In this document: in pieces, positions 2,357-55,939 of the stretch
Position numbering within the stretch: the first letter of the stretch is position 1
Layout of the letters: every line of letters begins with the position of its first letter
DNA from: Candidatus Magasanikbacteria bacterium RIFOXYC2_FULL_42_28
GTDB lineage: Bacteria > Patescibacteriota > Patescibacteriia > Magasanikbacterales > GWA2-37-8
DNA length: 64,000 nt
Direction: 5' to 3'
NCBI GenBank assembly: GCA_001784435.1
Contig: MFQZ01000010.1
Span: 105,960 to 169,959, forward strand
Translations under genes and position numbers: made by a program
Notes under the pieces: model-generated
Database searches by the model: none
Seen by the model: the letters and a program-made list of their open reading frames with translations, nothing else
Told to the model about the DNA's origin: nothing

Positions 2357-2369
2357 AAATAAAAAAACT

Positions 2370-6958: not shown

Positions 6959-7345
6959 ATGTTAGAAACATCCAAAGACATTTTGTATCTCGTGATTTCT
7001 TTTTGCGTTTTGTGGACAACCGTATTTTTGTGCTGGGTATTTTATTATGTCATGCGTCTACTGCGCAACACCAACCAAATCGTAGAAGAATTTCGTGTGC
7101 GTCTGCAGGCGTTAACCGAAGCGATAAATTATATCCGCGGTAAAGTAGAGCACATGTCCGGACTAATGACTTTAATTACCGACGGCGCGGCAGGACTGGC
7201 CAAAAAATTTGTGGCGCGCAAAGCCGGGGAGTGGGGTCAAGCGGGCGCGGATAAATTTGACGAAGCAGCCAAAGACGCGGTTAGTAAAGCGGTGGCGGCG
7301 ACAGCCAAGGGGATGCGCGGGGCGGTGAAGAAGATGAAAAGGTAA
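6959..7345 (+). CDS. small membrane protein (N-terminal TM helix, Ala/Lys-rich amphipathic C-terminus), function unknown
   Basis: Strong RBS AAAGGAGGAAAAAATATG; hydrophobic segment ILYLVISFCVLWTTVFLCWVFYYV. Confidence 0.5.
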   Translation: MLETSKDILYLVISFCVLWTTVFLCWVFYYVMRLLRNTNQIVEEFRVRLQALTEAINYIRGKVEHMSGLMTLITDGAAGLAKKFVARKAGEWGQAGADKFDEAAKDAVSKAVAATAKGMRGAVKKMKR

Positions 7346-7346
7346 T

Positions 7347-7451
7347 TTCAAAATTCCAATATCCAATTTCCAATCAAATCCAAATGTCCAACCGTTTTGA
7401 TATTTTAATTTTGACATTGATTTGACATTGGAAATTGGATATTTGATATTT
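7347..7451. repeat. family D AT-rich palindromic element (ccaatatccaatttccaatcaaatccaaa ... tttgacattggaaattggatattt)
   Basis: Imperfect inverted repeat; related copies at 39326-39440, 53787-53852, 55826-55925. Confidence 0.7.
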
Positions 7452-7456
7452 ATATA

Positions 7457-7530: not shown

Positions 7531-8814
7531 ATGTTAATCGCCGATCTCCACATCCACTCTCGCTATTCCCGCGCCTGCTCGCCGGAATTGAATTTGGCTA
7601 ATATTGCTAAATGGTGCCAAATTAAGGGGATAAATTTGGTGTCTACCGGGGATTTTACCCACCCGGCTTGGATTGAAGAAATTAAGCGGGATTTGGAGGA
7701 AGTTGGGAATGGGTTTTTAAAGTTGAAACTCCCACCCCCTCCTACCTCCCCCTCGGGCAGGGGGAGGAACGATGACGTTCGATTTATCCTCGGCACCGAA
7801 GTATCTTGTATTTATTCCCAAGGTGGCAAAACCCGCCGCGTGCATTTACTTTTATTTTTTCCAAAAATTTCGGACGTGGAAAAATTTAATTCGGCACTCA
7901 CGAAAGAAGGTTGTAATATCCGCGCGGACGGTCGGCCAATTTTAGGACTTACAGCCAAAGAGGTTTTGCAAATAATGAAAGATATCAATCCAAAATCCGT
8001 GCTGATTCCGGCGCACGCTTGGACGCCGTGGTTCGCGGTGTTTGGTTCCAAATCCGGCTATGACAGTTTGGAAGAATGTTTTGAAGAGCTAACGCCGGAA
8101 ATTTTTGCGATTGAAACTGGCTTGTCCAGCGACCCGCCAATGAATTGGCGTCTGTCGGCTTTGGACAAAATTACTTTAATTTCCAATTCGGACGCACACA
8201 GTTTGCCAAATTTGGGGCGCGAGGCCAATATGTTTAATTTGGATATTGCCAAAACAAATTACGATGAATTTTTTGGAGCGATTAAAAACAAAGACAGCGA
8301 ACTATTTTTAAAAACGATTGAATTTTATCCGGAAGAGGGGATGTACCATGTGGATGGCCACCGCGCTTGCGATTTTAGTTGTACGCCAACGCAAACTAAA
8401 AAATTGGGCGGATTATGTCCCAAATGTAAAAAATCTTTGACCGTCGGTGTATTATCGCAAGTGGAAAAATTGGCCGATCGGCCGGAAGGGTATCGTCCGC
8501 CGGACGCGATTCCGTATGTGAGTTTGGTGGAATTAGATAAAATTATCGCACAAGCATTGGGGGTGAAAAGCCGTAAAAGCGTTAAGGTGCAGGCCGAATA
8601 TGAAAAATTAATAAAATACCACAACGAGTTTGAAATTTTATTGGATTTGTCGTATGATGAGCTCGCAAAAATTACCACGCCAATTATCGTAGAAGGAATA
8701 AAACGCGTGCGCGAAGGCAAACTAAAAATCACGCCCGGGTTTGACGGCGAGTATGGTCGGGTGGAAATTTTTACTGATGACGAGAGAAAGGAATTCCAGG
8801 GTAAATTATTTTAA
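7531..8814 (+). CDS. PHP-domain protein with Cys4 zinc ribbon, EndoQ-like
   Basis: N-terminal PHP motif MLIADLHIHSRYSRA, HAWTP, Cys cluster C..C...CPKC, C-terminal GFDGEYG; architecture resembles endonuclease Q; family C repeat inserted in frame (PPPPTSPSGRGRNDD). Confidence 0.5.
   Translation: MLIADLHIHSRYSRACSPELNLANIAKWCQIKGINLVSTGDFTHPAWIEEIKRDLEEVGNGFLKLKLPPPPTSPSGRGRNDDVRFILGTEVSCIYSQGGKTRRVHLLLFFPKISDVEKFNSALTKEGCNIRADGRPILGLTAKEVLQIMKDINPKSVLIPAHAWTPWFAVFGSKSGYDSLEECFEELTPEIFAIETGLSSDPPMNWRLSALDKITLISNSDAHSLPNLGREANMFNLDIAKTNYDEFFGAIKNKDSELFLKTIEFYPEEGMYHVDGHRACDFSCTPTQTKKLGGLCPKCKKSLTVGVLSQVEKLADRPEGYRPPDAIPYVSLVELDKIIAQALGVKSRKSVKVQAEYEKLIKYHNEFEILLDLSYDELAKITTPIIVEGIKRVREGKLKITPGFDGEYGRVEIFTDDERKEFQGKLF
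7730..7770. repeat. family C GC-rich palindromic repeat (reverse orientation) inside PHP gene
   Basis: cccaccccctcctacctccccctcgggcagggggagg is the reverse complement of the copies at 31131, 44666, 59581. Confidence 0.7.
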
Positions 8815-14605: not shown

Positions 14606-15733
14606 TTATTCTATTTCCCAATTCGGATCAGCATTAAGAATTCGCCAATCGGTGAATTCTTTTTTTTGCGCTTGGTAATATCCAGCGACGGCGATCATGG
14701 CGGCGTTGTCCATGCAATATTTTAAATTTGGAATAAGTAGTTCATGGCCAATAGATTGCGATTCGTGAGCGAGCGTTTCGCGCAACTTTTCATTGGCCGC
14801 CACGCCACCACCCAAAATTATAGTTTTAGGATTATAAAGTTTGGCGGCTTTTAAAGTTTTGCCTACCAAGACATCAACAATTGCTTGTTCAAAAGACGCG
14901 CAGAAGTCGTTGACACTCGGTTTGTCATTGCGAGGAGTGAAACTACGAAGCAATCCCATGACTGTTGGCCAGAGATTGCCGCGCTCCCTACGGTCGCTCG
15001 CAATGACAGTGCCGGCGAGTTTATTATCGCGCAACCAATACAGAGCCGCTGTTTTTAATCCGGAAAAACTAAACTCCAAATTATCATCTTTTAGCATCGG
15101 CCGTGGAAAATCAATCGCGTCCGTTCGTCCGGTCTTCGCCAACTCCGAAATTTTTGGTCCACCCGGGTATTCTAACTCTAAAAGTTTTGCCACTTTATCA
15201 AAACATTCACCGGCGGCATCATCACGCGTCGCGCCGATTTTTTTGTATTCATTTGCCGAGTTCATTAAAATTAATTCCGTATGCCCACCACTCACAATCA
15301 GTGCGAGCGCCGGATATTCAATTGTCGTCACCGTATTGTCATCCCGATGAAAATCGGGATCTCTGTCCGTCTGTATTTCCACCGAGTGGCTGTGCCCCCA
15401 AATATGATTAACCGCAACAATAGGCACATTCCAAACCATACTCAAAGTCCGCGCCGCCTCTACGCCAACAATTAAACCGGTAATTAGTCCCGGTCCAGCC
15501 GTAACAGCAATCACATCCGGCCGTGGTTGGTTTTTTAAAACCTCTTCAATCAAAGGCACAATCTTCTCCGCGTGCGCTCTACCAGCCAATTCCGGCACCA
15601 CCCCACCATATTTTTTATGCAAATCAATTTGCGATACTGCCGATTCACGAACAACAAAACAGCCCTCGGGAGAACAATCCACAAGGGCCACCGCGGTATC
15701 GTCGCAAGATGATTCAATGCCGAGAATCAACAT
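14606..15733 (-). CDS. tsaD: tRNA N6-adenosine threonylcarbamoyltransferase
   Basis: MLILGIESSCDDTAVALV and the Kae1/YgjD fold; carries two in-frame repeat insertions. Confidence 0.9.
   Translation of the reverse strand: MLILGIESSCDDTAVALVDCSPEGCFVVRESAVSQIDLHKKYGGVVPELAGRAHAEKIVPLIEEVLKNQPRPDVIAVTAGPGLITGLIVGVEAARTLSMVWNVPIVAVNHIWGHSHSVEIQTDRDPDFHRDDNTVTTIEYPALALIVSGGHTELILMNSANEYKKIGATRDDAAGECFDKVAKLLELEYPGGPKISELAKTGRTDAIDFPRPMLKDDNLEFSFSGLKTAALYWLRDNKLAGTVIASDRRERGNLWPTVMGLLRSFTPRNDKPSVNDFCASFEQAIVDVLVGKTLKAAKLYNPKTIILGGGVAANEKLRETLAHESQSIGHELLIPNLKYCMDNAAMIAVAGYYQAQKKEFTDWRILNADPNWEIE
14922..15009. repeat. family B palindromic repeat in frame inside tsaD
   Basis: ttgtcattgcgag...ctcgcaatgaca; encodes about 29 aa (..DRRERGNLWPTVMGLLRSFTPRNDK) on the - strand. 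Confidence 0.7.
15337..15372. repeat. family A repeat in frame inside tsaD
   Basis: ttgtcatcccgatgaaaatcgggatctctgtccgtctg; encodes TDRDPDFHRDDNT on the - strand. Confidence 0.75.
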
Positions 15734-22931: not shown

Positions 22932-22972
22932 TAATTTTGTCATCTCCGTGAAAACGCGGATCCAGTCGCAGA

Positions 22973-23002
22973 TTGTCATTGCGAGCAAAGCGAAGCAATC
23001 TG
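22973..23002. repeat. family B repeat (ttgtcattgcgagcaaagcgaagcaatctg), preceded by an A-like degenerate copy at 22936-22971
   Basis: Sequence identity to the other B copies. Confidence 0.65.
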
Positions 23003-23080
23003 TACAACAGGCGTAACGTCTGTTTTTTGTTTGCATATTTAGCTCTGCCTCGTAAAGCCATAGCAAAAATGGTGACAGCC

Positions 23081-23124
23081 TGTGGATAACTTATTTGCCA
23101 AAAGCGGTTGGGGGGGGGGTATAC
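23081..23124 (+). promoter_or_regulatory. conserved promoter module copy 1: TGTGGATAA - TTGCCA(-35) - 18 nt spacer ending in G10 - TATACT(-10)
   Basis: Near-identical modules at 44804, 46537, 47787; G-run at 23109-23118. Confidence 0.45.
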
Positions 23125-23163
23125 TTATATGGAGAAAAATTTTATTTTTAATTTTTTAAAAAT

Positions 23164-27771: not shown

Positions 27772-27825
27772 TTGTCATCCCGAGTGAGGACTCCCGACTT
27801 AGTCGGGACGAGGGATCTCTGTCCA
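27772..27825. repeat. family A repeat (ttgtcatcccgagtgaggactcccgacttagtcgggacgagggatctctgtcc)
   Basis: Intergenic copy upstream of trxA. Confidence 0.75.
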
Positions 27826-30743: not shown

Positions 30744-30775
30744 TGTCATCCCGATGAAAATCGGGATCTCTGTCT
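30744..30775. repeat. family A repeat (tgtcatcccgatgaaaatcgggatctctgtcta) abutting the mutM start
   Basis: Identical core to the copy in tsaD. Confidence 0.8.
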
Positions 30776-31690
30776 ATGCCCGAACTTCCCGAAGTAGAAA
30801 CAGTTCGCCGTGATTTGGAAAAAGTTTTGGTTGGTAAAAAAATCACGGCAGTAGAAATTTTAGATAAAAAAATTGTCGGCGGTAAACCGGCAGTTTTTGT
30901 GTCGGCTGTAAATGGTAAGAAAATTGTTGGGGTGGAGCGAAGAGGGAAATTATTGGCGTTTAAATTAAGTAGCGGTGAATATTTGTTAGCGCATCTGAAA
31001 ATGACCGGGCAGTTGATTTGTGTTTCATTGTCATTGCGAGCGAAGCGCGGCAATCTCATCGCCGGCGGTCACCAAGTTGGTAAAAACGATTTAACTGTGC
31101 CAAACAAATTCACGCGCGTCATTTTTGCATTTTCCCCTCCTGCCCGAGGAGGGGCGAGGGGTGGTGGGAGCGTTGGTGGCACACTATATTTCAACGACCT
31201 CCGTCGTTTCGGTTATTTAAAAGTTGTATCGGCGGAAGAAAAAGAAACCATATTTAAAAATAATTTTGGTATTGAACCATTGACACCCGATTTTAAATTA
31301 TCAGCTTTTACAAAAATATTTCGAAACCGTAAAACCAATTTAAAAGCGATTTTGATGAATCAAAAATTAATTTCTGGCTTGGGGAATATTTACGTGGACG
31401 AGGCCTGTTTTAACGCTGGACTTTTACCGTGGCGATCGGCTAAGTCACTAAAACCGCCAGAAATTAAAAAATTATTTTCTTGTATTCAAAAAGTAATCGC
31501 CGTGGCCATTAAAAATCGCGGCACCACTTTTAAAGATTTTCGCGATGGCGCGGGTGGGCGCGGGGCGCATTATAATTTTCTTAATGTGTATGGGCGCAAA
31601 GGTGAAAAATGCCGGAAGTGTAAAAATTTTATAAAAAAGACCAAACACGCCGGGCGGGGGACGCATTTTTGTCCGAAATGTCAGCGGTAA
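30776..31690 (+). CDS. mutM: formamidopyrimidine-DNA glycosylase
   Basis: MPELPEVETVRR N terminus, H2TH region and C-terminal zinc finger CRKCKN..C..C; two in-frame repeat insertions. Confidence 0.85.
   Translation: MPELPEVETVRRDLEKVLVGKKITAVEILDKKIVGGKPAVFVSAVNGKKIVGVERRGKLLAFKLSSGEYLLAHLKMTGQLICVSLSLRAKRGNLIAGGHQVGKNDLTVPNKFTRVIFAFSPPARGGARGGGSVGGTLYFNDLRRFGYLKVVSAEEKETIFKNNFGIEPLTPDFKLSAFTKIFRNRKTNLKAILMNQKLISGLGNIYVDEACFNAGLLPWRSAKSLKPPEIKKLFSCIQKVIAVAIKNRGTTFKDFRDGAGGRGAHYNFLNVYGRKGEKCRKCKNFIKKTKHAGRGTHFCPKCQR
31028..31056. repeat. family B repeat in frame inside mutM
   Basis: ttgtcattgcgagcgaagcgcggcaatctc encodes CVSLSLRAKRGNLIAG. Confidence 0.75.
31131..31172. repeat. family C repeat in frame inside mutM
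   Basis: ttttcccctcctgcccgaggaggggcgaggggtggtgggagcg encodes FSPPARGGARGGGSVG. Confidence 0.75.
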
Positions 31691-31752: not shown

Positions 31753-34700
31753 ATGTCAAAATACGATCATAAAAAAATAGAAGCAAAATGGAAGAAAAAT
31801 TGGGAAAAGTCCGGGATATATAAAACCGGCGACCCATCCTTCGCTAAGGATTCGGCGGGCAAGCCCAAGTATTATGTCTTGGACATGTTTCCGTATCCAT
31901 CAGGCGCGGGTTTGCATGTCGGCCACCCCAAGGGTTTTATCGCCACCGACATTGTCGCGCGTTTAAAAATGATGCAAGGGTACAATGTTTTGCACCCGAT
32001 GGGTTGGGACGCGTTTGGGCTACCGGCGGAAAATTATGCTTTGAAAAATAAAGTTCATCCGGCGGACGCGACTGCCGAAAATATTAAAGTTTTTAAAAAA
32101 CAATTAGGCCTTTTGGGTTTTACTTATGATTGGAGCAGGGAAGTGAATACGACTGATCCAGAATATTATAAATGGACCCAGTGGATATTTTTACAATTAT
32201 TTAAAAAGGGTCTGGCGTTTGAATCTTACGAACCGATTAATTGGTGCCCGTCGTGCAAAACCGGTTTGGCTAATGAAGATTTGGAAGATGGGAAATGTGA
32301 GCGCTGTGGGAGCGTGGTAGAACAAAAACCTTTGCGCCAATGGGTATTGAAAATTACCGATTATGCCGAGCGTTTGCTCAATGATATTGAATTATTAAAA
32401 GAATGGCCCGAGCCGATTAAAGAAATGCAGAGAAATTGGATTGGACGCAAGGAGGGTATAAATATCGTATATCAAATTGAGGGGTCGGATAAAAAAGTTA
32501 TTTGTTTCACCACTCGTCCTGACACAAATTTCGGTGCTACTTTTGTTGTGGTTGGCCCGGAACATTCTTTGATTTCATCAATAACAACATCGGAGTATAA
32601 AGAAGATGTAGAAAAATATGTATCCGCCGCTAAAAATAAAACAGAATTAGATAGAATTGCGGAAGGTAGAGAGAAAAGTGGTGTGTTTACCGGTTCGTAT
32701 TGCATAAATAATTTGACTGATTATAAAATGCCGATTTGGGTGGCTGATTATGTGTTAGGCAATGTAGGAACTGGCATGGTAGTAGGTGTGCCGGGACATG
32801 ATAAACGCGATTTTGAATTTGCCAATAAATTTGGTATTGAAATAAAAAGAGTGGTGGTGGCCGGTGATGGTGATACGTCGCCTATTACTAAAATAGAACA
32901 GGTGCAGGAACATGAAGGGGAAATGATAAATTCTGGATTTTTGGATGGTTTAGATATTCACGATGCTACACGTAAGATAATGGATCGTTTAGAAGAAAAA
33001 GGATGGGGTAAGCGAGTGATTAATTATAAATTACGCGATTGGGTTTTTTCGCGCCAACGTTATTGGGGGGAGCCGATACCGCTCGTGCATTGTGAAGTGT
33101 GCAAAAATAAAAAATATAATTACATTATTTTACACGGATATACCGGTACGGCCGATCAAAATGGACCGGGTAGAGGCGATTCTAATAATTGGCGCCCGTG
33201 GGTAAAAGTTAAATTAGAAGAACGTGGCAATAAAGTTTTTTGTCCTAATCTTCCAAACACTAATGAACCAAATATAGATGAACAAGTGCAATATGTTATA
33301 GACAATGTTAATTTTGAGATAGACGAAAACACGGTTATAGTTGGGCATAGTTTGGGTGGAGTAGTGATATATAAACTGTTGGAAAAATTAAATAAGAAAG
33401 TTGGCAAAGTATTGTTAGTTGATCCGGTAGTAAGTCCCGAGTTTCCGGACAAAGAAAGACTAAATGTAAAAAAGAGTTGTGACTGGAAATTTAATTTTGA
33501 GAAGATAAAAAAATTAAGTGATGATTTTGTTGTTTTGGGTGCGTCTGATTTTGCGACTATCTTTGAAAAAGATTTAAGATTTGTGGCCGATAAACTGGAA
33601 GCAAATTTAGTTTTAGCTAAACCAGCGGAAGGGCATTTTACAGCTGAAGAAGAGCCGGTCGTATTAAATTTATTAAATAATACTGGCTGGTACCCAGTCC
33701 CAGAAAAAGACCTGCCACTTGAATTGCCAAAAGTAAAAAATTATGAACCGACTGGAACCGGGGAATCGCCACTCGCGGGAATTGATAAGTGGGTGAATAC
33801 ATTATGTCCTCATTGTGGCGGGCCGGCGAAACGTGAAACCAATACCATGCCACAGTGGGCGGGGAGTTGTTGGTATTATTTGCGCTATGAAGATCCGCAT
33901 AACAGTAAAGCACTCGTGGATAAAGATAAAGAAAAATATTGGTCGCCGGTGGATTTTTATGTTGGTGGCGCCGAACACGCCACGCGCCATTTAATTTACG
34001 CGCGGTTTTGGCATAAGTTTTTATTTGATATTGGGGCGGTTAGCAATATTGAGCCGTTTACCAAATTACAAAGTGTGGGTTTGATTCTGGCCGAAGACGG
34101 GCGCAAGATGAGTAAGCGTTGGAATAATGTAATTAATCCCGATGATGTTGTGGCTGAATTTGGCGCGGACGCGATGCGTTTGTATGAAATGTTTATGGGG
34201 CCATTTGATCAGGCTTGCGCTTGGAGTACGAAAGGTGTGATTGGGTGTCGGCGGTTTTTGGAAAAGGTTTGGGTGCTGGGCGAGAAGATTAAAGATGAAA
34301 GATTGAAGATTAATGGTGATAATAATAAAAATATTGAGATATTATTAAACCAAACAATCAAAAAAGTTACCGAAGACATTCCAGCGATGCGATTTAACAC
34401 GGCCATCGCGCAACTGATGATTTTTGCGAATGAGGCTTCACAATCTTCTATCTTAAATCTTCAATCTTTCGCTTCATTCCTCCAACTTCTCGCTCCATTT
34501 GCTCCGCATATGACAGAAGAGCTGTGGGCAAATTTAGGCAACAAAGAAAGTATTTTTAAATCCGCGTGGCCGAAATTTGACCCCACCAAAATTCAACATT
34601 CCGAAATTACCGTCGTCGTTCAAGTAAACGGTAAGCTGCGCGATGAAATAATTGTGCCAGTTGATATTGCCGAAGCCGATGCCAAAGCGCGGGCGCTTTC

Positions 34701-34788
34701 AACAGAAAAAATTAAAAAATGGTTAGATGGCAAAGAGCCGAAGAAAGTGATTTATGTGAAAGGGAAGCTCGTGAGTATAGTGGTGTAG
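31753..34788 (+). CDS. leuS: leucine--tRNA ligase with an embedded alpha/beta serine-hydrolase domain
   Basis: HIGH region (HVGHPKG), CP1 editing motifs TTRPDT and GTGMVVGVPGHDKRDFEFA, KMSKR; start at ATG 31753 (MSKYDHKKIEAKW); about 190 aa longer than a typical bacterial LeuS. Confidence 0.9.
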   Translation: MSKYDHKKIEAKWKKNWEKSGIYKTGDPSFAKDSAGKPKYYVLDMFPYPSGAGLHVGHPKGFIATDIVARLKMMQGYNVLHPMGWDAFGLPAENYALKNKVHPADATAENIKVFKKQLGLLGFTYDWSREVNTTDPEYYKWTQWIFLQLFKKGLAFESYEPINWCPSCKTGLANEDLEDGKCERCGSVVEQKPLRQWVLKITDYAERLLNDIELLKEWPEPIKEMQRNWIGRKEGINIVYQIEGSDKKVICFTTRPDTNFGATFVVVGPEHSLISSITTSEYKEDVEKYVSAAKNKTELDRIAEGREKSGVFTGSYCINNLTDYKMPIWVADYVLGNVGTGMVVGVPGHDKRDFEFANKFGIEIKRVVVAGDGDTSPITKIEQVQEHEGEMINSGFLDGLDIHDATRKIMDRLEEKGWGKRVINYKLRDWVFSRQRYWGEPIPLVHCEVCKNKKYNYIILHGYTGTADQNGPGRGDSNNWRPWVKVKLEERGNKVFCPNLPNTNEPNIDEQVQYVIDNVNFEIDENTVIVGHSLGGVVIYKLLEKLNKKVGKVLLVDPVVSPEFPDKERLNVKKSCDWKFNFEKIKKLSDDFVVLGASDFATIFEKDLRFVADKLEANLVLAKPAEGHFTAEEEPVVLNLLNNTGWYPVPEKDLPLELPKVKNYEPTGTGESPLAGIDKWVNTLCPHCGGPAKRETNTMPQWAGSCWYYLRYEDPHNSKALVDKDKEKYWSPVDFYVGGAEHATRHLIYARFWHKFLFDIGAVSNIEPFTKLQSVGLILAEDGRKMSKRWNNVINPDDVVAEFGADAMRLYEMFMGPFDQACAWSTKGVIGCRRFLEKVWVLGEKIKDERLKINGDNNKNIEILLNQTIKKVTEDIPAMRFNTAIAQLMIFANEASQSSILNLQSFASFLQLLAPFAPHMTEELWANLGNKESIFKSAWPKFDPTKIQHSEITVVVQVNGKLRDEIIVPVDIAEADAKARALSTEKIKKWLDGKEPKKVIYVKGKLVSIVV
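33105..33690 (+). other. YdeN/RBBP9-like alpha/beta serine hydrolase domain inserted within LeuS
   Basis: IILHGYTG...NWRPWVK...VIVGHSLGG (nucleophile elbow)...LGASDF...AEGHF (Ser-Asp-His candidates); sits between PIPLVHCEVC and the C-terminal CPHCGG...WYYLRY region. Confidence 0.6.
34441..34475. repeat. short tandem-repeat-like insert (caatcttctatcttaaatcttcaatcttt) in frame in the leuS 3' region
   Basis: Same aatcttcaatctta motif as the trxA upstream tandem repeat; encodes SQSSILNLQSF. Confidence 0.6.
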
Positions 34789-39310: not shown

Positions 39311-39325
39311 AATATTTATTAATAA

Positions 39326-39440
39326 TTTCAAAATCCAAATTTCCAATTTCCAAATTAATGTCTAAGCTAAAATAACAAATTTGACATTTAGATTTTGGAT
39401 TTTGTTTGACATTGGATATTGGATATTTGACATTTAAATT
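39326..39440. repeat. family D AT-rich palindromic element
   Basis: caaaatccaaatttccaatttccaaa ... tttgacattggatattggatatttgacattt; produces spurious MEIWIL ORFs. Confidence 0.7.
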
Positions 39441-39441
39441 T

Positions 39442-40254
39442 ATGGGCGCCATCTTCAACACATTCTTATATCAGCCACTGCTTAACATTTTCGTCGCTCT
39501 CTATAACCTGATTCCCGGCCACGATGTTGGTATTGTAATTATCGTGATTACGATACTTTTGCGTATCGCTCTTTATCCTTTGACCAATAAATCCTTGAAG
39601 GCGCAAAAAGATTTACAAGAATTGCAACCGAAATTGGAAGAAATAAAAACAAAATATAAAGATGATAAGCAGGGTCAGGCGCAAGCGACGATGGAGTTGT
39701 ACAAAAATAATAAAGTAAACCCGTTCGCGTCTTGTTTGCCTTTAATTGTGCAGTTGGTAATCTTGATTGCGTTATATCAAGTTCTGCGCAACATGTTGGA
39801 TCCGGCCTATGATATCGCCTCGCATTTATATTCATTTGTAAAAAATCCCGGTGTGATTAACCAGATATCATTTGGATTTTTGAATTTAGCTGAAAAGAGC
39901 ATCGTGCTGGCGGTTTTGGCCGGCGCGGCGCAGTTTTGGCAGGCTAAATCAATGAGTACCAAACGTCCGCCAGTCGCGTCCGGTGTTGGTGGTAAGGACG
40001 AAGGAATGATGGTGATAATGAATAAGCAGATGTTATATATGATGCCGGTGATGACTGTTTTTATCGGTATTTCGCTTCCGGCCGGATTGACCTTGTATTG
40101 GTTTTGGAGTACATTATTAATGGCACTGCAACAGGTGTGGTTGTTTTCCGCCAAAGGCGCTGCGTCTGCCTCTGGCATGGGACCCACCTCTGGCGGGAAA
40201 GACGGTCCTTCTACTGGCGACACAAAGGTGATAGAAGGCAAAATAGCAAAATAA
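39442..40254 (+). CDS. yidC: membrane protein insertase YidC/Oxa1 family (short form)
   Basis: Conserved YidC TM region; start ATG 39442 immediately after the element. Confidence 0.85.
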   Translation: MGAIFNTFLYQPLLNIFVALYNLIPGHDVGIVIIVITILLRIALYPLTNKSLKAQKDLQELQPKLEEIKTKYKDDKQGQAQATMELYKNNKVNPFASCLPLIVQLVILIALYQVLRNMLDPAYDIASHLYSFVKNPGVINQISFGFLNLAEKSIVLAVLAGAAQFWQAKSMSTKRPPVASGVGGKDEGMMVIMNKQMLYMMPVMTVFIGISLPAGLTLYWFWSTLLMALQQVWLFSAKGAASASGMGPTSGGKDGPSTGDTKVIEGKIAK

Positions 40255-40521: not shown

Positions 40522-41346
40522 ATGGGCACTGTTTCCAGTTTAGAGCAATATCGACAAAAAATTGAGAGCGAGGGCGCTAACAGTCAGCCACCTAAAAAAG
40601 AATTAGGAAAAGTTTGGCGCAATGTCTTAGGTGACGCGCGTTTTAATTATGTTGATCGACAATATGGTGCCAAACGGTTCACGGCCGGTGATGTTGATAA
40701 AATTTTTCATTTAATCAACGCGGAAGTTGGTGAAAAAGAAGATGAGGTCTCTGATGAGGTGGTGAATGATATCAAGGCAGACAAAACCGCTGTGGCGCTT
40801 GCCAAGGGCCAAGATTGTACCTCGTCTATCGCTTCCGAAGTTAAAGGTCTGCGTGAACTGTGGCAATTTTTTGTAAGAATGGCCAATGCCAGCTCCATTA
40901 CCGGTGGAGAATATTCTGCCGCCAAAATGTTTATGGTGGACGACGCGAGCGTCGGACGTTTGAAACAAATGAACCAGATTGATTTTAAAGGTCAACCGTT
41001 AAATTCTTCGGCGATAAATGTTGATACTGCCAATGCCGGCGCGCAATATTATTTTGTGCTTGATAATGATGAAGGGAAAAATGTTAAAGAAATTTTTGAG
41101 AAGCACGGTCATAATATTTCCGAAAATAAAAATGGTCCCGGTTTTCAGGCGGAAATGGGGCGGGTACGATTTGCCTTTTTGTATGTGGAAATGGACAAGG
41201 ACTTGGAAGAAGATGTTGCCAATGAAAAAGGAGAAAAATCTGTGATGGTGGGCGGTGAAAAGAAAAAAATAGAAACAGCGAAAAAAGACGGCGCCGCCAA
41301 TGACAATGAAGAAATTTCCGAAGAAAAAGTTGCCAGAGCCGCATGA
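40522..41346 (+). CDS. hypothetical protein
   Basis: 274 aa ORF, acidic C terminus, no motif recognised. Confidence 0.4.
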   Translation: MGTVSSLEQYRQKIESEGANSQPPKKELGKVWRNVLGDARFNYVDRQYGAKRFTAGDVDKIFHLINAEVGEKEDEVSDEVVNDIKADKTAVALAKGQDCTSSIASEVKGLRELWQFFVRMANASSITGGEYSAAKMFMVDDASVGRLKQMNQIDFKGQPLNSSAINVDTANAGAQYYFVLDNDEGKNVKEIFEKHGHNISENKNGPGFQAEMGRVRFAFLYVEMDKDLEEDVANEKGEKSVMVGGEKKKIETAKKDGAANDNEEISEEKVARAA

Positions 41347-42344
41347 ACAAATTATTGCAACAAGCTATCATCCGGACCTTAACTTATTTTGATATTGTAA
41401 AAAAATCCCTAACGCGCGCGGAGTTATTTAGTTTTTTGTGGCAACCACCGTTTGTTGGTCGTGAAGAATTTAATAAATATTTAGAAGAGAACACTGTTGT
41501 CATCCTGAGCGAAGCGAAGGATCCCTTAAGGTCAAATGTAAGGGATTCTTCGGCTACGCCTCAGAATGACAAAAAAAGTTGGCAAGCGAAAGATGGTTTG
41601 TATTTTTTACCTGGCCATGATGAATTCGTTGAAAAACGCGCCGCTGGTCGGGAGCATAGCGATCGATTATTAAAAATCGCTGTGCGCGCGGTTAAAAAAA
41701 TTCGTTCTATTCCGTTTGTCCGCGCGATTTTTGTTTGCAATTCGGTCGGGTCGGGGACGGCGAGCGACAACTCGGATGTGGATTTATTTATCATCACCGC
41801 GCCCAAGAGAGTATGGCTTGTTAGATTTTTTACTAATATCACGATGTTATTATTTGGCTTGCGCCGGCACGGTGATAAAGTTGCCGGTAAAGTTTGTTTA
41901 TCATTTCTAGTAGATGAAAAAAAATTAAATATGGCGCCGTGGCGCGTTTGTGATGACGATATTTATCTGGCGTATTGGCTGTTCCAATTAATTCCGTTGT
42001 ATGATCCGAATAATTTATATGATAAGTTGATAGCGGCCAATGGTTGGGTAAAAAAGTATTTGCCTAATGTTAAAAAAAATTCTACAGATACTTTCGCTTT
42101 GACAGATTCAGTCTGGGGATTAAAATGGAAAAACCTTTGGGAAAAATTTTGGACCGGCGCGTATGGTGATTTAATTGAAAATCAAGCGCGGGGAACGCAG
42201 CAGGCCAAAATGAAATTTAGTTCGCACGGTAAAGTTCGCCCGCATGACAAAAGCGTAATTGTGGGGGAGGGAGTGATTAAATTACACGAAGGTGATACGC
42301 GGGAAGAATTACACCGACAGTGGCTTGACGCCATTTCCGAATAG
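41343..42344 (+). CDS. hypothetical protein with nucleotidyltransferase-like GS..DvDlfI motif; carries an in-frame family A palindrome
   Basis: GSGTASDNSDVDLFIIT; repeat encodes VVILSEAKDPLRSNVRDSSATPQNDKK. Confidence 0.4.
   Translation: MNKLLQQAIIRTLTYFDIVKKSLTRAELFSFLWQPPFVGREEFNKYLEENTVVILSEAKDPLRSNVRDSSATPQNDKKSWQAKDGLYFLPGHDEFVEKRAAGREHSDRLLKIAVRAVKKIRSIPFVRAIFVCNSVGSGTASDNSDVDLFIITAPKRVWLVRFFTNITMLLFGLRRHGDKVAGKVCLSFLVDEKKLNMAPWRVCDDDIYLAYWLFQLIPLYDPNNLYDKLIAANGWVKKYLPNVKKNSTDTFALTDSVWGLKWKNLWEKFWTGAYGDLIENQARGTQQAKMKFSSHGKVRPHDKSVIVGEGVIKLHEGDTREELHRQWLDAISE
41497..41572. repeat. family A palindromic composite (ttgtcatcctgagcgaagcgaaggatccc ... gggattcttcggctacgcctcagaatgacaa)
   Basis: Perfect-ish inverted repeat inside the CDS at 41343-42344. 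Confidence 0.7.
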
Positions 42345-42642: not shown

Positions 42643-44612
<1,970 letters not shown>

Positions 44613-44665: not shown

Positions 44666-44708
44666 GTCTCCCCCTGCCCGAGGGGGAGAATAAGAGGGGG
44701 TGGGAGCG
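44666..44708. repeat. family C repeat downstream of groEL
   Basis: ccccctgcccgagggggagaataagagggggtgggagcgg. Confidence 0.7.
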
Positions 44709-44730
44709 GATTCTTTATTCGCACAACCAC

Positions 44731-44764
44731 AAAAATAATCGACCGCTCGGTCGGTTATTTTTTT
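44731..44764 (+). terminator. conserved terminator module T (aaaaataatcgaccgctcggtcggttatttttt), copy 1
   Basis: Perfect hairpin plus T-run; identical copies at 46498 and 47715; degenerate copy at 50138. Confidence 0.7.
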
Positions 44765-44803
44765 GTTTGCCTTGCAAGGCCATAGCCCGCAGGGCGACGG
44801 CTT

Positions 44804-44849
44804 GTGGATAACTTTATTTGCCAAATACGGTCGGGGGGGGGGGTATACT
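44804..44849 (+). promoter_or_regulatory. conserved promoter module copy 2: TGTGGATAA - TTGCCA - 20 nt spacer ending in G11 - TATACT
   Basis: G-run at 44833-44843. Confidence 0.45.
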
Positions 44850-46006: not shown

Positions 46007-46243
46007 ATGGAAACTACTGTTCAAAAAACCACCACCAAAGGCCAAATCACTTTGCCCAAACACTGGCGCGATCAGTTTAAAACCAATCATTTCGCCATGA
46101 TGCCGCAGGATGATTTTTTGATTATTCGGCCGTTGTCGTTGGATGACGAGGATAATTATATTAGTGTGTTTGACGCCAAACGCGACAATCGGGGCAAAGG
46201 TATGCCAGCTAAAAAGTTATTGAAAATTTTAAAGTCCGTTTAA
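46007..46243 (+). CDS. AbrB/MazE/SpoVT-type antitoxin
   Basis: TTKGQITLPKHWRDQF looped-hinge motif; precedes a RelE toxin with 1-nt spacing. Confidence 0.6.
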   Translation: METTVQKTTTKGQITLPKHWRDQFKTNHFAMMPQDDFLIIRPLSLDDEDNYISVFDAKRDNRGKGMPAKKLLKILKSV

Positions 46244-46244
46244 A

Positions 46245-46487
46245 ATGGACAAGATTAAAAAATTATTTAAGAAATTATCCGCAACCGACCGAATTGCTTT
46301 GGCAGCAGCGTTGGAATTATTAGTCGCGAATAACTTGGAGGGGTTGGATATAAAAAAGTTGGCCGGTGGTAATTTATGGCGTTTGCGCGTTGGTAATTTT
46401 CGGATTATTTTTAAACGCCATAACGCTGAAAATATTGTTTACGAAATTCGTCGGCGTGATGAGAATACTTATAAAGGATTAGTTTGA
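46245..46487 (+). CDS. relE: RelE/ParE-family toxin
   Basis: GNLWRLRVGNFRIIFKRHNAENIVYEIRRRDENTY matches the ..YRLRVGDYRIIY.....I.IL.IGHR consensus. Confidence 0.65.
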   Translation: MDKIKKLFKKLSATDRIALAAALELLVANNLEGLDIKKLAGGNLWRLRVGNFRIIFKRHNAENIVYEIRRRDENTYKGLV

Positions 46488-46497
46488 TTGTGATAAT

Positions 46498-46531
46498 CAA
46501 AAATAATCGACCGCTCGGTCGGTTATTTTTT
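46498..46531 (+). terminator. terminator module T, copy 2
   Basis: aaaaataatcgaccgctcggtcggttattttttt. Confidence 0.7.
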
Positions 46532-46536
46532 TATCT

Positions 46537-46580
46537 GTGCATAACTTATTTGACAAATATCGTCGGGGGGGGGGTATGCT
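46537..46580 (+). promoter_or_regulatory. conserved promoter module copy 3: TGTGCATAA - TTGACA - 19 nt spacer ending in G10 - TATGCT
   Basis: G-run at 46565-46574. Confidence 0.45.
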
Positions 46581-46628
46581 ATAAGCAAATTATGAATTGT
46601 TAAAAATTTGTTAAATATAAAAAATAAT

Positions 46629-47309: not shown

Positions 47310-47459
47310 ATGATGATACCGCAGGATGATTTTTTGATTATCAGGCCGTTGTCTTTGGACGATGAAGATAATCATATTAGCGTTTTTGATGCCAAGCGCG
47401 ATAATCGCGGTCAAGGCATTCCGGCTAAAAAATTATTGAAAATTTTAAAGTCCGTTTAA
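47310..47459 (+). pseudogene. 5'-truncated duplicate of the AbrB-type antitoxin (lacks the DNA-binding N terminus)
   Basis: MMIPQDDFLIIRPLSLDDEDNHISVFDAKRDNRGQGIPAKKLLKILKSV aligns with the C-terminal 49 aa of 46007-46243. Confidence 0.6.
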
Positions 47460-47460
47460 A

Positions 47461-47703
47461 ATGGATAAGATTAAAAAGTTATTTAAAAAATTATCCACAA
47501 CCGACCGCGTTGCTTTGGCAGAAGCGTTGGAATTATTGGCCGTGAATAATTTGGAAGGGTTGGACATAAAAAAGTTGGCCGGTGGTAATTTATGGCGTTT
47601 GCGCGTTGGTAATTTTCGGATTATTTTTAAACGCCATAACGCTGAAAATATTGTTTACGAAATTCGTCGGCGTGATGAGAATACTTATAAAGGATTAGTT
47701 TGA
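47461..47703 (+). CDS. relE: RelE/ParE-family toxin, second copy
   Basis: 75 of 80 aa identical to 46245-46487 (about 94%). Confidence 0.65.
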   Translation: MDKIKKLFKKLSTTDRVALAEALELLAVNNLEGLDIKKLAGGNLWRLRVGNFRIIFKRHNAENIVYEIRRRDENTYKGLV

Positions 47704-47714
47704 TTGTGATAATC

Positions 47715-47748
47715 AAAAATAATCGACCGCTCGGTCGGTTATTTTTTT
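47715..47748 (+). terminator. terminator module T, copy 3
   Basis: aaaaataatcgaccgctcggtcggttattttttt. Confidence 0.7.
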
Positions 47749-47786
47749 GTCTGCTTGCAGTGAATCGGCCGTAGGCCTGGTTCACT

Positions 47787-47830
47787 GTGCATAACTTATT
47801 TGCCAAACACGGTCGGGGGGGGGGTATACT
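47787..47830 (+). promoter_or_regulatory. conserved promoter module copy 4: TGTGCATAA - TTGCCA - 19 nt spacer ending in G10 - TATACT
   Basis: G-run at 47815-47824. Confidence 0.45.
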
Positions 47831-47862
47831 TTAAGTACAGTTTTATTTTTAATTTTAATAAT

Positions 47863-48585: not shown

Positions 48586-49776
48586 ATGTTAAAAAGAGTA
48601 CTTTTTTATGATATTTTAGGGCAAATTGACCATAAAAATGCTTTGGTAGTTACCGGTATGCGCCAAGTGGGCAAAACCACCCTAATGAAGCAAATTTTTG
48701 AGGAAATTGGCCAAGATAAGTCAAAATTATGGTTTGATTTTGAAAATCCGCTGGATATGAAGGTTTTTGAGGATATTGATTACAATGTCATCTATACTCG
48801 TCTGGCGCAAATGGCTGGTAATACTAAAAATCGGTTGTATATTTTTATTGATGAAATTCAGAATTTCCCGGAAATCACCAAAATCATAAAATATTTAATT
48901 GATCATTATGGCGTGAAGTTTTTAGTAACCGGATCGTCTAATTTTTATTTGAAAAATTTATTTCCAGAAAGTTTGAGTGGACGAAAATTTTTGCATGATT
49001 TGTCACCGTTAAGTTTTAAAGAATTTTTATATTTTCACGATCAAATTTCTTTGGACGATGCCAAACGAAATGATTTGGTATCAATGCTTCATTCGCACGC
49101 GCTCATAGAAATTAAAAAATTTGAACCATATTATGATAACTATTTGCGTTATGGTGGTTTTCCCGAAGTGGCGATGGAGGTGGACAATGAATTAAAAAAA
49201 GAAATTCTTAAAAATATTTTTAAGTCATTTTTTGAAAAGGATTTAAAAATTCTCTCCGACCACAAAGATATTCGCGAATTACGTGATTTGCTTTTACTTT
49301 TAGTGCCACGAGTTGGCTCGATGTTGGATATTTCCAAAGTTGCAAGTGAGTTGGGGGTAGAACGCGCAAAAATTTATAGTTATTTGGAATTTTTACAAGG
49401 CACTTTTATGATTCGTCTTTTGCCGAAATTTTCGAAAAGTATCGATCGTGCTGTTGCTGGTGGGAAAAAAGTATATTTTTCTGATAATGGATTACTGGGC
49501 GCGATCGGCTCCGTGAATGACGCGCAATTATTGGAAAACGCTGTTGTTAATCAATTGGCAAATTATGGCGATTTAAGTTTTTATAATAAACGTAACACCG
49601 CGGAGATTGATGTGATTTATAATAAAAAAATTGCTATAGAAATCAAAGCATCCGGATCAGAGTCTGATCGGCGAAAATTAACCGAATTGTCGGGTAGTTT
49701 GGGGATTAAACAGAATTATATTATTTCTAAAAATTTTGTTGAGAAAGATGGTTTTGTTTCGCCGGCGCAGTTGTAG
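48586..49776 (+). CDS. AAA+ ATPase of the COG1373 type (AAA_14 + DUF4143-like)
   Basis: P-loop [12 protein letters not shown]; Walker [10 protein letters not shown]; 3' end fused to the groEL-tail duplicate. Confidence 0.6.
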
Positions 49777-50030
49777 CCGAAGAAGTCAAACGTCGTGAAG
49801 GCAATGTCGGCTATAACGCCGCGACTGGTGAATACGAGGACTTGGTCAAAGCCGGTATTATTGACCCGACAAAAGTAACACGTACAGCCTTGCAAAATGC
49901 CGCGTCAATTGCCGGAATGTTGCTCACTACCGAAGTCGTTATCACCGATATTCCAAAAAAAGATGAACTGGCGATGCCGGGTGGTGGTATGTCGGGAGGA
50001 ATGGGTGGTATGGGTGGAATGTATTAAATG
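49777..50030 (+). pseudogene. duplicated 3' fragment of groEL (about 85% nucleotide identity to 44350-44612)
   Basis: Encodes ..[83 protein letters not shown]; differences mostly synonymous. Confidence 0.8.
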
Positions 50031-50124: not shown

Positions 50125-50137
50125 CACACACAACCAT

Positions 50138-50196
50138 AAAAATAATCGACCGCTCTGGTTCGTTCTTTTGATTTTATTTAGATGGTATAGTATAAT
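50138..50196 (+). promoter_or_regulatory. degenerate terminator T copy + class-2 promoter (TTGATT - 17 nt - TATAAT)
   Basis: aaaaataatcgaccgctctggttcgttcttttgattttatttagatggtatagtataat. Confidence 0.45.
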
Positions 50197-52620: not shown

Positions 52621-52700
52621 TTGTCATGCCGATGAAAATCGTCATCTCTGTCCGTTGGTTATTGATTAAGATAGAGATCCCGACTTTCGTCGGGATGATA
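52621..52700. repeat. family A composite (two inverted copies: ttgtcatgccgatgaaaatcgtcatctctgtcc ... gatcccgactttcgtcgggatga)
   Basis: Upstream of prfB. Confidence 0.7.
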
Positions 52701-52710
52701 GTAAAAAAAT

Positions 52711-53784
52711 ATGATAGAACAATTAACAAATCTCCAACAAAAAATTACCGAAGCAATGGCGCTTTTGAAATTGCCGGATTTAAAAAATAAAATGGCGCAG
52801 TTAGCCGAGCAAATGAACGCGCCGAATTTTTGGTCTAACCAGAAGAACGCGACAATGGTTTCGCAAGATTATCAGGATATAAAAAACGAAGCAGAAAAAT
52901 GGGAAGATTTGTTAAAGCGGGCGAATGACCTGATGGAATTAGCCGAGTCGGGTGATGAATCGCTGGCTAATGAAATTGACGCACAAACCACCGAATTACA
53001 AAAAGAATTTGAAAAATATGAATTGTCTTTGTTGTTAAACGGTCCATATGACACGAGTAATGCTATTGTCGCGATTCATTCTGGTAGTGGTGGCACTGAA
53101 GCGCAAGATTGGGCGGAAATGTTGTTTCGGATGTATAGTCGTTTTTGTGAAAATAAAAAATGGAAAACAGAAATTTTGGATGAAGCGCGCGGAGCCGAGG
53201 CTGGTTATAAATCCATTATGTTTCGGGTATCTGGTCGGTATGCGTTTGGTAATTTAAAATCCGAACACGGCGTGCATCGTTTGGTGCGCATCTCGCCCTT
53301 TGATGCGGAAAAAATGCGTCATACCTCGTTCGCGCTTGTGGAAGTTTTACCGGAATTGCCGGATAATGTGGAAGTTGAAATTGATCCAAAAGATTTGCGT
53401 ATTGATACATTTATGAGCGGAGGCAAAGGCGGGCAGTCGGTGAATACCACTTATAGCGCGGTGCGCATTGTGCATCTGCCGACCAATATCACGGTGTCGT
53501 GCCAAAATGAACGCAGTCAACAACAAAACAAAGAAACCGCCATGAAAGTTTTGCGGTCAAAATTATATTTATTGGAAATGGAACGCTTGGCCAAAGAAAA
53601 ACAGGACTTGCGCGGGGAATATAAGAGTGCCGAATGGGGCAATCAAATTCGTTCGTATGTTTTGCATCCGTATCATATGGTAAAGGATTTGCGTAGTAAT
53701 TATGAAACTAGTGATGACGTCGGCGTGTTGGAAGGTGATTTGGATGGGTTGGTGGAGGCGTATTTGAAGTGGTTGAAGAAGTAA
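52711..53784 (+). CDS. prfB: peptide chain release factor 2 (no programmed +1 frameshift)
   Basis: SPF tripeptide (RISPFDAEK) and GGQ motif; single continuous ORF. Confidence 0.9.
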   Translation: MIEQLTNLQQKITEAMALLKLPDLKNKMAQLAEQMNAPNFWSNQKNATMVSQDYQDIKNEAEKWEDLLKRANDLMELAESGDESLANEIDAQTTELQKEFEKYELSLLLNGPYDTSNAIVAIHSGSGGTEAQDWAEMLFRMYSRFCENKKWKTEILDEARGAEAGYKSIMFRVSGRYAFGNLKSEHGVHRLVRISPFDAEKMRHTSFALVEVLPELPDNVEVEIDPKDLRIDTFMSGGKGGQSVNTTYSAVRIVHLPTNITVSCQNERSQQQNKETAMKVLRSKLYLLEMERLAKEKQDLRGEYKSAEWGNQIRSYVLHPYHMVKDLRSNYETSDDVGVLEGDLDGLVEAYLKWLKK

Positions 53785-53786
53785 TG

Positions 53787-53852
53787 CCAAAATCCAAATT
53801 TCCAATTTCCAATCAAATCCAAAATCCTAATATCAAATTTGAAATTAAAAAA
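53787..53852. repeat. family D element (left half: ccaaaatccaaatttccaatttccaatcaaatccaaaatcc)
   Basis: Shares 30+ nt with the copies at 7347 and 39326. Confidence 0.65.
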
Positions 53853-53854
53853 AT

Positions 53855-54460
53855 ATGCAAATTTTTAAATTTGAAAATTTAGAAGAAATTATTGATTTGA
53901 TAAAAGCAGGTGGTGTAGTTATCTTCCCCACCGAAACATCCTATGGTTTAGGTTGTGTTGCCACGAACCAAAAATCGGTTGATAAAATTTTTGCAATTAA
54001 AGGGCGGGTGGGTGATAAGCCGTTACTTGTAGTTGTGCCAGATGTAGCGATGGCGAAAAAATATTTGGAGTGGAATGCGACGTTAGATAATTTAGCAAAA
54101 AAATATTGGCCTGGGGCGCTAACAATAGTAGGTAAGTGTCGGAAAAAAATATTTGGAAAAAATTTAGTGAGTGGGGCGGTCGGTAAAGATAACACCGTGG
54201 CGGTTCGTGTTACGGCTCATCCCTTTTTAAAATTAATTACCGAAAAATTAGGCGTGCCACTCGTGGCGACTTCGGCGAATTTAGCCGACGCGGGGGAAAT
54301 TTACGATTCGGCCGAGGCGATTAAAATTTTTGCCAATTTAGAAAATGCGCCGGACGCGATTGTGGACGCGGGCGTGTTGCCAAAAAATTTGCCGTCGACA
54401 ATTGTGAGTGTAGTAGATGATAATATAAAAGTATTGAGACAGGGGAGCGTGCGGTTGTAA
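53855..54460 (+). CDS. tsaC: threonylcarbamoyl-AMP synthase (YrdC/Sua5 family)
   Basis: IFPTETSYGLGCVATN...KGR..KPLLVVV motif. Confidence 0.85.
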   Translation: MQIFKFENLEEIIDLIKAGGVVIFPTETSYGLGCVATNQKSVDKIFAIKGRVGDKPLLVVVPDVAMAKKYLEWNATLDNLAKKYWPGALTIVGKCRKKIFGKNLVSGAVGKDNTVAVRVTAHPFLKLITEKLGVPLVATSANLADAGEIYDSAEAIKIFANLENAPDAIVDAGVLPKNLPSTIVSVVDDNIKVLRQGSVRL

Positions 54461-55810: not shown

Positions 55811-55825
55811 TAAAGTATTATTAAT

Positions 55826-55925
55826 GTCAAATTTCCAATTTCCCATGTCAAATCAAATCCAAAATCCAAATTACGAAATTGACATTTTGGCTTTGACATT
55901 GATTGGAAATTGGAAATTTGGATTT
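55826..55925. repeat. family D AT-rich palindromic element
   Basis: caaatttccaatttcccatgtcaaatcaaatccaaaatccaaa ... tttgacattgattggaaattggaaatttggattttg. Confidence 0.7.
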
Positions 55926-55939
55926 TGAAATTATCACCT

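Follow-up and report, generated by a model that had tools for sequence, protein, structure and literature searches.

We analysed a 64-kb stretch of a Candidatus Magasanikbacteria genome (the window; 64,000 nucleotides, GC content 42%), a member of the Candidate Phyla Radiation (CPR), and followed up mutM (fpg), a gene for a DNA glycosylase of the Fpg/MutM type. Two copies of dispersed repeats (families B and C) lie in-frame within this gene and a third (family A) stands just upstream, all three where an earlier, sequence-only reading of the stretch had placed them. The gene order is gdh–mutM–leuS, which is kept in the closest relatives with DNA at hand. Pfam finds the three domains of the product intact (Fapy_DNA_glyco 1–147, H2TH 165–253 and zf-FPG_IleRS 276–303), and its best Protein Data Bank (PDB) sequence matches are solved MutM structures (8e-49). 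All hallmarks of Fpg/MutM are present: the N-terminal domain, H2TH, zinc finger, P2, E3, K58, wedge residues and four cysteines. The closest proteins (25 of 120, later all 120) were aligned; the invariant columns include P2, E3, K58, M76, R143, F145 and the four zinc-finger cysteines, and cover the catalytic, DNA-contacting and zinc-finger residues of the product.

Over shared codons (Nei–Gojobori method), the ratio of nonsynonymous to synonymous divergence (dN/dS) of mutM is 0.11–0.18 against three relatives: 0.16 against locus L001 (dS 0.52), and 0.12–0.13 against L003 and L004. Because of this ratio and the conserved catalytic and zinc-finger residues, mutM is a gene under purifying selection and not a pseudogene, an outcome that the sequence-only reading had allowed for. 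The identical protein is recorded in several public sources, with a hypothetical protein of Candidatus Magasanikbacteria bacterium RIFOXYC2_FULL_42 among the entries (a cluster of two member sequences from two contigs).

Repeat families at the mutM locus

The family A copy occupies positions −32 to −1 relative to the mutM start codon. It consists of a TGTC tag, an 8-bp stem (ATCCCGAT/ATCGGGAT) that opens with A–T and T–A pairs, a GAAA loop and the tail CTCTGTCT. Its hairpin is more stable than those of shuffled sequences (z = −3.3 as RNA, −4.9 as DNA), and the window holds five matches to the family at up to three mismatches against none in shuffles. With this copy in place, gdh and mutM are separated by 40 nt from stop to start codon, as against 3–4 nt in L003 and L004. 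In L001, a 390-nt spacer with fragmented small open reading frames (ORFs; 2610–3001) stands where the window has the 40-nt spacer, and resembles what is left of a small gene once inserted there.

Family B has the TGTCAT head and ATCTC tail in common with family A, and its stem likewise opens with A–T and T–A pairs. The stem is interrupted, with 5 bp and an inner 3 bp around GCGAAGC, bulges between them and the apical region GAGCGAAGCGCG. Other window copies, at 2286 and 22972, are 87–90% identical to the family reference copy. The 26-mer core of B (one free position) recurs at at least 120 loci in about 13 phyla, as read from record titles: Nitrospirota, Chloroflexota, α-, β- and γ-Proteobacteria, Bacillota, Planctomycetota, Patescibacteria, Dependentiae, Spirochaetota, Bacteroidota, Bdellovibrionota, Campylobacterota, Actinomycetota and Melainabacteria. 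Family B is thus not peculiar to this genome but a pan-bacterial element in one of its sequence types. Among the matches listed the flanks of the core are conserved, as YY|GTCAT...AATC|YMK (two pyrimidines before; C/T, A/C and G/T after). Whether copies in other phyla lie in genes is mostly uninformative, host genomes being GC-rich and open frames common. In many genomes (L010, L021, L031, L033 and others), a full B copy has a piece of its 5′ half (GTCATTGCGAG...) 10–14 nt upstream, which may be the footprint of element copying or nesting.

Family C is a G-rich hairpin repeat without the TGTC tag. In the mutM product the B and C inserts read LSLRAKRGNL and SPPARGGARGGGS, respectively, and the net gain at the C site is 12 codons. 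A consensus of the family in other metagenome contigs (GC 39–51%) is TCCCCTCCTGCCCGAGGAGGGG-nnn-GGGGGTGGTGGGAG; each of the 11 matches there (about six distinct loci) falls within a long open frame, whichever way the element is turned, and the readings are LLPEEGVGGGGR, SHHPLTPPRAG or LPPPPTPSSGR. This untagged family seems to live mostly inside genes, and it could be matched to no family described so far. A phage origin was considered and rejected, with no exact match in viral contigs. The related protein P0002 (from L001) has a C insert at the same mutM site, of the same length and frame and diverged in sequence (PPARGGARGGGSV in the window against PPARGGEAEGVGA; ARGGGSV against EAEGVGA, with arginines changed to glutamates). 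The window copy resembles its own genomic copy at 59585, whereas the L001 copy resembles the other subtype; gene conversion, or renewed insertion, at a fixed site would be compatible with this pattern.

Copies elsewhere in the window

Dispersed copies of the repeats are far more numerous than in shuffled sequence (Table 1). Besides mutM, in-frame copies occur in pheT, tsaD, the ORFs at 41343–42344 and 7531–8814, a giant ORF starting at 57604 and a DUF4015 gene; those in pheT and tsaD lie inside recognisable genes. In-frame repeats are a habit of this genome and not a peculiarity of mutM. From gene to gene, the same element DNA is translated in another frame or orientation and gives unrelated peptides, which argues against a designed protein motif. 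Three inverted dimers were found (2286–2359, 41496–41573 and 52622–52702). The single TGTC-tagged copies have their tag on the plus strand in eight of eight cases, including the copy in the minus-strand gene tsaD, and GC skew is positive (G-rich plus strand) across the whole window; a strand bias of this kind would fit a single-stranded, replication-linked mechanism.

Table 1. Repeat copies and their host genes in the window, with the reading of each copy where it is translated
Feature	Position	Strand	Context
mutM/fpg, intact	30776–31690	+	304 aa; starts MPELPEVE
Family A copy, TGTCATCCCGATGAAAATCGGGATCTCTGTC	30744–30774 (element entry 30744–30775)	+	Fills the gdh–mutM intergenic space; stops 1 nt short of the ATG (30776)
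Family B copy, ATTGTCATTGCGAGCGAAGCGCGGCAATCT	31027–31056	+	In-frame in mutM; residues 85–94, LSLRAKRGNL; no stop codon
Family C copy, CCCCTCCTGCCCGAGGAGGGGCGAGGGGTGGTGGGAGC	31133–31171 (core 31134–31171)	+	In-frame in mutM; residues 120–132, SPPARGGARGGGS; no stop codon
Inverted dimer of family B	2286–2359	.	Between pheS and pheT; inverted partner at about 2320–2356; z = −3.9
Family A copy	3227–3257	+	Sequence match; in-frame in pheT, B3_4 domain, AVIPTKVGISV
Family A copy	15337–15367	+	Sequence match; inside minus-strand gene tsaD, read in reverse as DRDPDFHRDDN
Tandem pair, A-like copy then family B copy	22938–23001	+	The A-like copy is the only strict match to the SRM pattern
Long family A variant	27773–27823	+	Intergenic; extra hairpin sequence in the loop (nested or longer version)
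Inverted REP dimer	41496–41573	.	In-frame in ORF 41343–42344, read as VILSEAKDPLRSNVRDSSATPQND
Inverted dimer of family A	52622–52702	.	Upstream of a gene for a peptide chain release factor with PCRF/RF-1 domains
Family A copy whose loop contains a second, nested element	55742–55805	+	A DUF4015 glycosyl hydrolase gene takes its C-terminal tail and stop codon from this copy
Diverged family C copy	7729–7761	−	In ORF 7531–8814, read in reverse as LPPPPTSPSGR
Diverged family C copy	44673–44708	+	Intergenic, downstream of groEL
Close family C copy	59585–59624	+	In-frame in giant ORF starting at 57604, read as FPPSARGGGEGVVGA; 37/40 alignment columns agree, and two of those that do not are 1-nt gaps
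Single TGTC copies (start positions)	3227, 15337, 22938, 22972, 27773, 30744, 31027, 55742	+	

Filled and empty sites in orthologous glycosylases

Most of the 120 closest Fpg proteins measure 283–289 aa and are free of inserts; about 90% carry no peptide of the repetitive extragenic palindromic (REP) type. The orthologues P0003 and P0004 have neither the C insert nor the intergenic A copy, the C insert is missing at L003 and L004, and P0002, 88% identical to the window Fpg over aligned positions, shares the C site as described above. Protein and DNA alignments of orthologues thus give filled and empty versions of the mutM insert positions. Because orthologues have empty sites and the same DNA recurs elsewhere in the window, the B and C residues are not native, and native lineage-specific loops can be rejected; the sequence-only reading, which native residues would have undone, withstands this comparison, with most of the 120 CPR proteins lacking all three repeats.

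Twelve of the 120 CPR proteins carry REP-type peptides, clustered at three sites: after residues ~35–39 (VILSEAKDP type), after 82 and after 120. At the second of these, site 2, six loci have TGTCAT-type elements in the DNA alignments (the window, L001, L003, L004, L125 and L127). In the window the element is of the B type. L001 and L004 share the CCCCGCGAAAGCGGGG type, accompanied by further elements, and in L003 an A type has decayed. An inverted dimer stands in L125 and an element in a different reading frame in L127; L126 is empty. The CCCCGCG-type element is absent from the window. By these alignments, site 2 was filled on at least three independent occasions. L126 reads Y-RGHHQL-I where its close relative L125 has Y-LSSPRKRGSAADSRSESGMT-I, so that the native loop RGHHQL was replaced and not just interrupted. 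No target-site duplication could be defined at the three mutM sites in filled/empty alignments. For the repeated use of the same sites, we rate selection filtering of tolerated loops more likely than targeting.

P0002 (L001 3001–4092) is further altered. Its insert at site 2 is compound, making it about 40 aa longer there than insert-free orthologues, and in the Fpg zinc finger a 24-aa insert (GITPTLRSGLTTGRARKSSLAHLV) separates one cysteine pair from the other; Pfam reports no zinc-finger domain for this protein.

Position of the inserts in the MutM fold

An AlphaFold2 model of the mutM product, built from an alignment, has a mean predicted local distance difference test score (pLDDT) of 84.6 and a predicted template modelling score of 0.83. 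The only segments below a pLDDT of 50 are 86–91 and 127–131, inside B and C. The model superimposes on MutM–DNA complexes including 1r2y with a target-normalised template modelling score (TM-score) of 0.92. The comparison with structural Fpg homologues that the sequence-only reading had called for thus finds the fold kept and low-confidence coil confined to the inserts, which are predicted to take surface loop positions.

The B insert (85–94) comes directly after strand 78–84, and the C insert (120–132) forms the turn between strands 113–119 and 135–141 of the N-terminal domain. The earlier suggestion that C falls around the start of H2TH has to be given up: C lies within the N-terminal domain (1–147), 33 residues before H2TH begins at 165. 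In an alignment with Geobacillus MutM, M76 corresponds to M77, and R143 and F145 to R112 and F114; M77, R112 and F114 are residues mutated in the matching PDB MutM entries. Strand 78–84 runs away from M76 and strand 135–141 runs toward R143, and we infer that both inserts sit at strand ends facing away from the DNA. The peptides probably stay in the protein, and activity is probably kept.

Possible relation to the target of a single-stranded-DNA nuclease

In Neisseria, the NTS motif (CGTCATTCCCGCGMAVGCGGGAATCYRG) is cut as single-stranded DNA by the 94-aa GIY-YIG nuclease SsnA; Ssn genes are usually flanked by the motif, and NTS copies are rarely in genes (2%; PMC11893778). The window was searched with the published pattern for Ssn-related motifs (SRM), HGTCWYN(0-2)YYVSBRHN(0-5)WNVSBRGN(0-2)RNCYNB, which gave a single exact match, at 22938–22965 (0.04 in shuffles). 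A regular-expression match at 41844–41924, taken up as a GIY-YIG candidate, proved a false lead, the region being an ordinary ORF that holds a REP dimer. Ten ORFs that adjoin repeat copies or belong to the repeat-rich parts of the window were scanned with Pfam, which found housekeeping genes only and no transposase, REP-associated tyrosine transposase (RAYT) not having been specifically searched.

One Woesebacteria locus (L021, 1650–2018) has a B copy 45 nt downstream of a 100-aa, Pfam-confirmed GIY-YIG gene, with a partial GTCATTGCGAG just before the copy. This layout resembles the NTS–ssnA arrangement. A and B look like, and would work like, CGTC/NTS-type hairpins, and are at most candidate members of an Ssn system.

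Interpretation

Repeat identity, insertion status, reading frame and purifying selection are documented by the sequence comparisons, and the loop location by the predicted model. We consider it likely that dispersed hairpin elements of the REP type sit in mutM and at its junction with gdh, and are translated in the gene as floppy loops of a still-functional glycosylase, that is, as tolerated selfish DNA. REP-type hairpins entered mutM twice and the gdh–mutM junction once. The copies in the gene persist because the net length is a multiple of three and so keeps the frame, stop codons are absent from the frame used, and the loops are tolerant, distal ones at the far ends of two β strands of the N-terminal domain, away from the DNA-inserting residues M76, R143 and F145. 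B and C would then be extra loops on a still-working enzyme and not a designed domain. The A hairpin separates the otherwise almost abutting gdh and mutM, probably uncoupling or damping mutM translation, and may protect the gdh message. Spread may go through single-stranded DNA, perhaps with a small GIY-YIG (Ssn-like) nuclease as in Neisseria, which is the best lead. An intein, a self-splicing intron or translational bypass is improbable: the inserts are far too short for the first two and are open in frame, so removal is not demanded.

Several observations weigh against this interpretation or parts of it. The hairpins of B and C are no more stable than shuffled sequence, and stability was dropped as evidence for these two families. 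The net gain at site 2 (6–7 codons) is smaller than the element (10 codons) and the native loop RGHHQL was replaced between L125 and L126; the event was therefore not a simple cut-and-paste insertion. The strand bias of the TGTC copies is confounded with an excess of plus-strand genes, and the sample is small. At mutM, pheT and tsaD, each A or B copy would need two substitutions to fit the SRM pattern, which rules out strict SRM membership of the two families. No small GIY-YIG ORF was found in the 64-kb window with phmmer and jackhmmer, a weak test with approximate queries, and only one of the ~120 B-bearing loci among the matches listed has an adjoining GIY-YIG gene.

Under a bolder and rather unlikely reading, the hairpins would not land in fpg at random to be filtered afterwards; a small set of codon positions would be targeted again and again, with elements swapped there, through a site- and strand-specific single-stranded copy-in or gene conversion, perhaps driven by an Ssn-like GIY-YIG nuclease. 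It is prompted by the three or more independent fillings of site 2, which use two frames and include one dimer that replaced the native loop, by sister genomes holding different REP families at orthologous sites, and by all single copies facing the same way on sequence that would be lagging-strand template. If true, such a site-directed route would remodel protein loops inside CPR coding DNA.

That the elements serve the host as hairpins in RNA or DNA, tuning mRNA stability, translation or recombination of the gdh–mutM–leuS unit, with A as 3′ stabiliser of gdh and brake on mutM, strikes us as improbable. The A copy does form a strong 8-bp hairpin with a GAAA loop over the place where a ribosome-binding site would be expected (−28 to −9), relatives have a coupled junction of 3–4 nt instead, and most REPs elsewhere follow an ORF and are believed to function as RNA (PMC3733652). 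Yet no U-tract follows A, no terminator was called at the repeats and Rfam gave no match above noise (the best, rteR, at E = 0.49, is far below the gathering score), so that a known RNA family or terminator is excluded; B and C fold no better than shuffles, and the idea covers the intergenic copy and not those inside coding loops.

Even less probable, in our estimate, is that the inserts are adaptive, their Arg/Gly-rich loops (RAKRG, ARGGARGGG) adding nucleic-acid contacts or a partner-binding site. Both peptides are indeed basic and glycine-rich, the reading frame of C has survived from the time P0002 branched off (dS ~0.5), and in CPR Fpg the same three loops have received inserts repeatedly. 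The C peptide itself is not conserved between the two proteins, though, its arginines giving way to glutamates (ARGGGSV against EAEGVGA); the same DNA elements yield unrelated peptides in other frames and orientations, also between genes; pLDDT is below 50 in both inserts, at strand ends opposite M76, R143 and F145; and about 90% of the 120 orthologues do without them.

A decaying pseudogene or assembly artefact marked by repeats, suggested by two foreign inserts within 150 bp of a metagenome-assembled genome, is scarcely credible and can be ruled out given the intact 304-codon frame with its three domains, the dN/dS of 0.11–0.18, the invariant key residues, the identical protein in several public sources and a diverged relative with the same in-frame C insert.

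If the inserts are tolerated selfish DNA, as we favour, then selfish DNA inside coding genes, first seen in Rickettsia, would occur also in small-genome CPR bacteria, affecting core genes such as mutM, pheT and tsaD. For annotators and structure predictors, many CPR proteins with low-complexity loops of 10–20 residues may be better read as carrying REP-derived sequence than lineage-specific motifs. The filled and empty sites, repeat hits and turnover in CPR Fpg would form a compact natural data set on how CGTC/NTS-type hairpins move; one partner nuclease family, Ssn, was described in 2025.

Other repeats and the neighbouring gene

A conserved ~45-nt motif, CTGTGCATAACTTATTTGCCAAAnnCGGTCGGGGGGGGGGTATAC, with a G10 tract occurs four times upstream of ORFs (23080–23143, 44814–44842, 46535–46598 and 47785–47848). 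These ORFs may have a promoter or leader in common, or the motif may act as a poly-G switch that is prone to slippage. The terminator-like hairpin CAAAAATAATCGACCGCTCGGTCGGTTATTTTTTTG likewise occurs four times (44730–44770, 46498–46538, 47714–47754 and 50137–50177), and two segmental duplications have 85–89% identity (46097–46396 with 47313–47612; 44340–44561 with 49764–49985). These terminator-like repeats and duplications suggest that 44–50 kb is a cluster of paralogous small-gene cassettes. AT-rich intergenic repeats of TTTCCAATTTCCAA-like units (7343–7455, 39316–39442, 53782–53878 and 55819–55937) form long inverted repeats with one another, the longest reaching 104 nt (77% complementarity) and including a perfect core of 32 nt, and are a class apart from A, B and C.

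Downstream of mutM, the leucyl-tRNA synthetase gene (31753–34788, plus strand) encodes an inserted α/β-hydrolase (Ser_hydrolase/Abhydrolase) domain at residues ~458–632, after the editing domain; for its L001 orthologue, a NUDIX domain is listed as well.

Comparison with known systems

Among the closest known systems are the CGTC-tagged REPs surveyed by Di Nocera, De Gregorio and Rocco (2013, PMC3733652). The tag of this superfamily, CGTC, is often changed to TGTC, with CCTC a further variant; it is followed by an 8–9-bp stem starting from A–T and T–A pairs, a 4–5-nt loop (other lengths in some families) and a short tail, and head-to-head dimers are common (PMC3733652). The superfamily includes Neisseria dRS3/NTS and Rickettsia RPE-4 and RPE-6. 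Its members are mainly intergenic with a minority in genes, and intragenic copies, many in repair genes, are already known, with different REPs at about the same recB site in two Xanthomonas species (PMC3733652).

Family A agrees with this description throughout: a TGTC tag, the A–T/T–A start, an 8-bp stem, a GAAA loop of 4 nt, a short tail, dispersed copies, dimers and a minority in genes, DNA-repair genes among them. Family B has the tag and fits the stem description in part, its 5+3-bp stem being interrupted and not a clean 8–9 bp, and it has the interrupted apical region GAGCGAAGCGCG in place of a 4–5-nt loop; family C is untagged. We take A and B, on their sequence anatomy, to belong to one superfamily of TGTC-tagged REPs that is pan-bacterial and already known inside genes. 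That survey did not cover CPR/Patescibacteria, and the intragenic share in the window looks high, at eight or more in 64 kb.

From Neisseria NTS/dRS3, the likeness is one of layout (YGTCAT, hairpin, ATCYNG), with one window copy fitting the SRM pattern; the differences are that no ssnA-like gene was seen in the 64-kb window and that in-gene copies are rare in Neisseria. GTAG REPs and REPINs are likewise short dispersed hairpin repeats, often inverted doublets and thought to move as single-stranded DNA, but neither A, B nor C has a GTAG tag, and CGTC REPs are reported to lack a dedicated RAYT.

The nearest parallel for the coding copies is the Rickettsia palindromic element (RPE), described by Ogata et al. 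and, as summarised in PMC3733652, a short palindromic repeat lying in-frame in conserved housekeeping and repair genes and translated as an extra loop. The mutM copies match that summary as dispersed palindromic repeats that are in-frame and absent from orthologues. RPE-4 and RPE-6 further share the CGTC-type tag, with in-frame repeats as extra loops in genes that are likely still functional. Set against the RPE as summarised there, the host here is a free-living or episymbiotic CPR bacterium, the elements are ~30–40 nt, several unrelated families occur in one gene and the same loops are hit repeatedly in independent lineages. The phenomenon is a CPR case of a known kind, that of RPE-like coding palindromes or intragenic CGTC REPs; what it adds is that the same loops are used again and again, that elements turn over at a single site, and that an untagged family, C, seems to lie mostly in genes.

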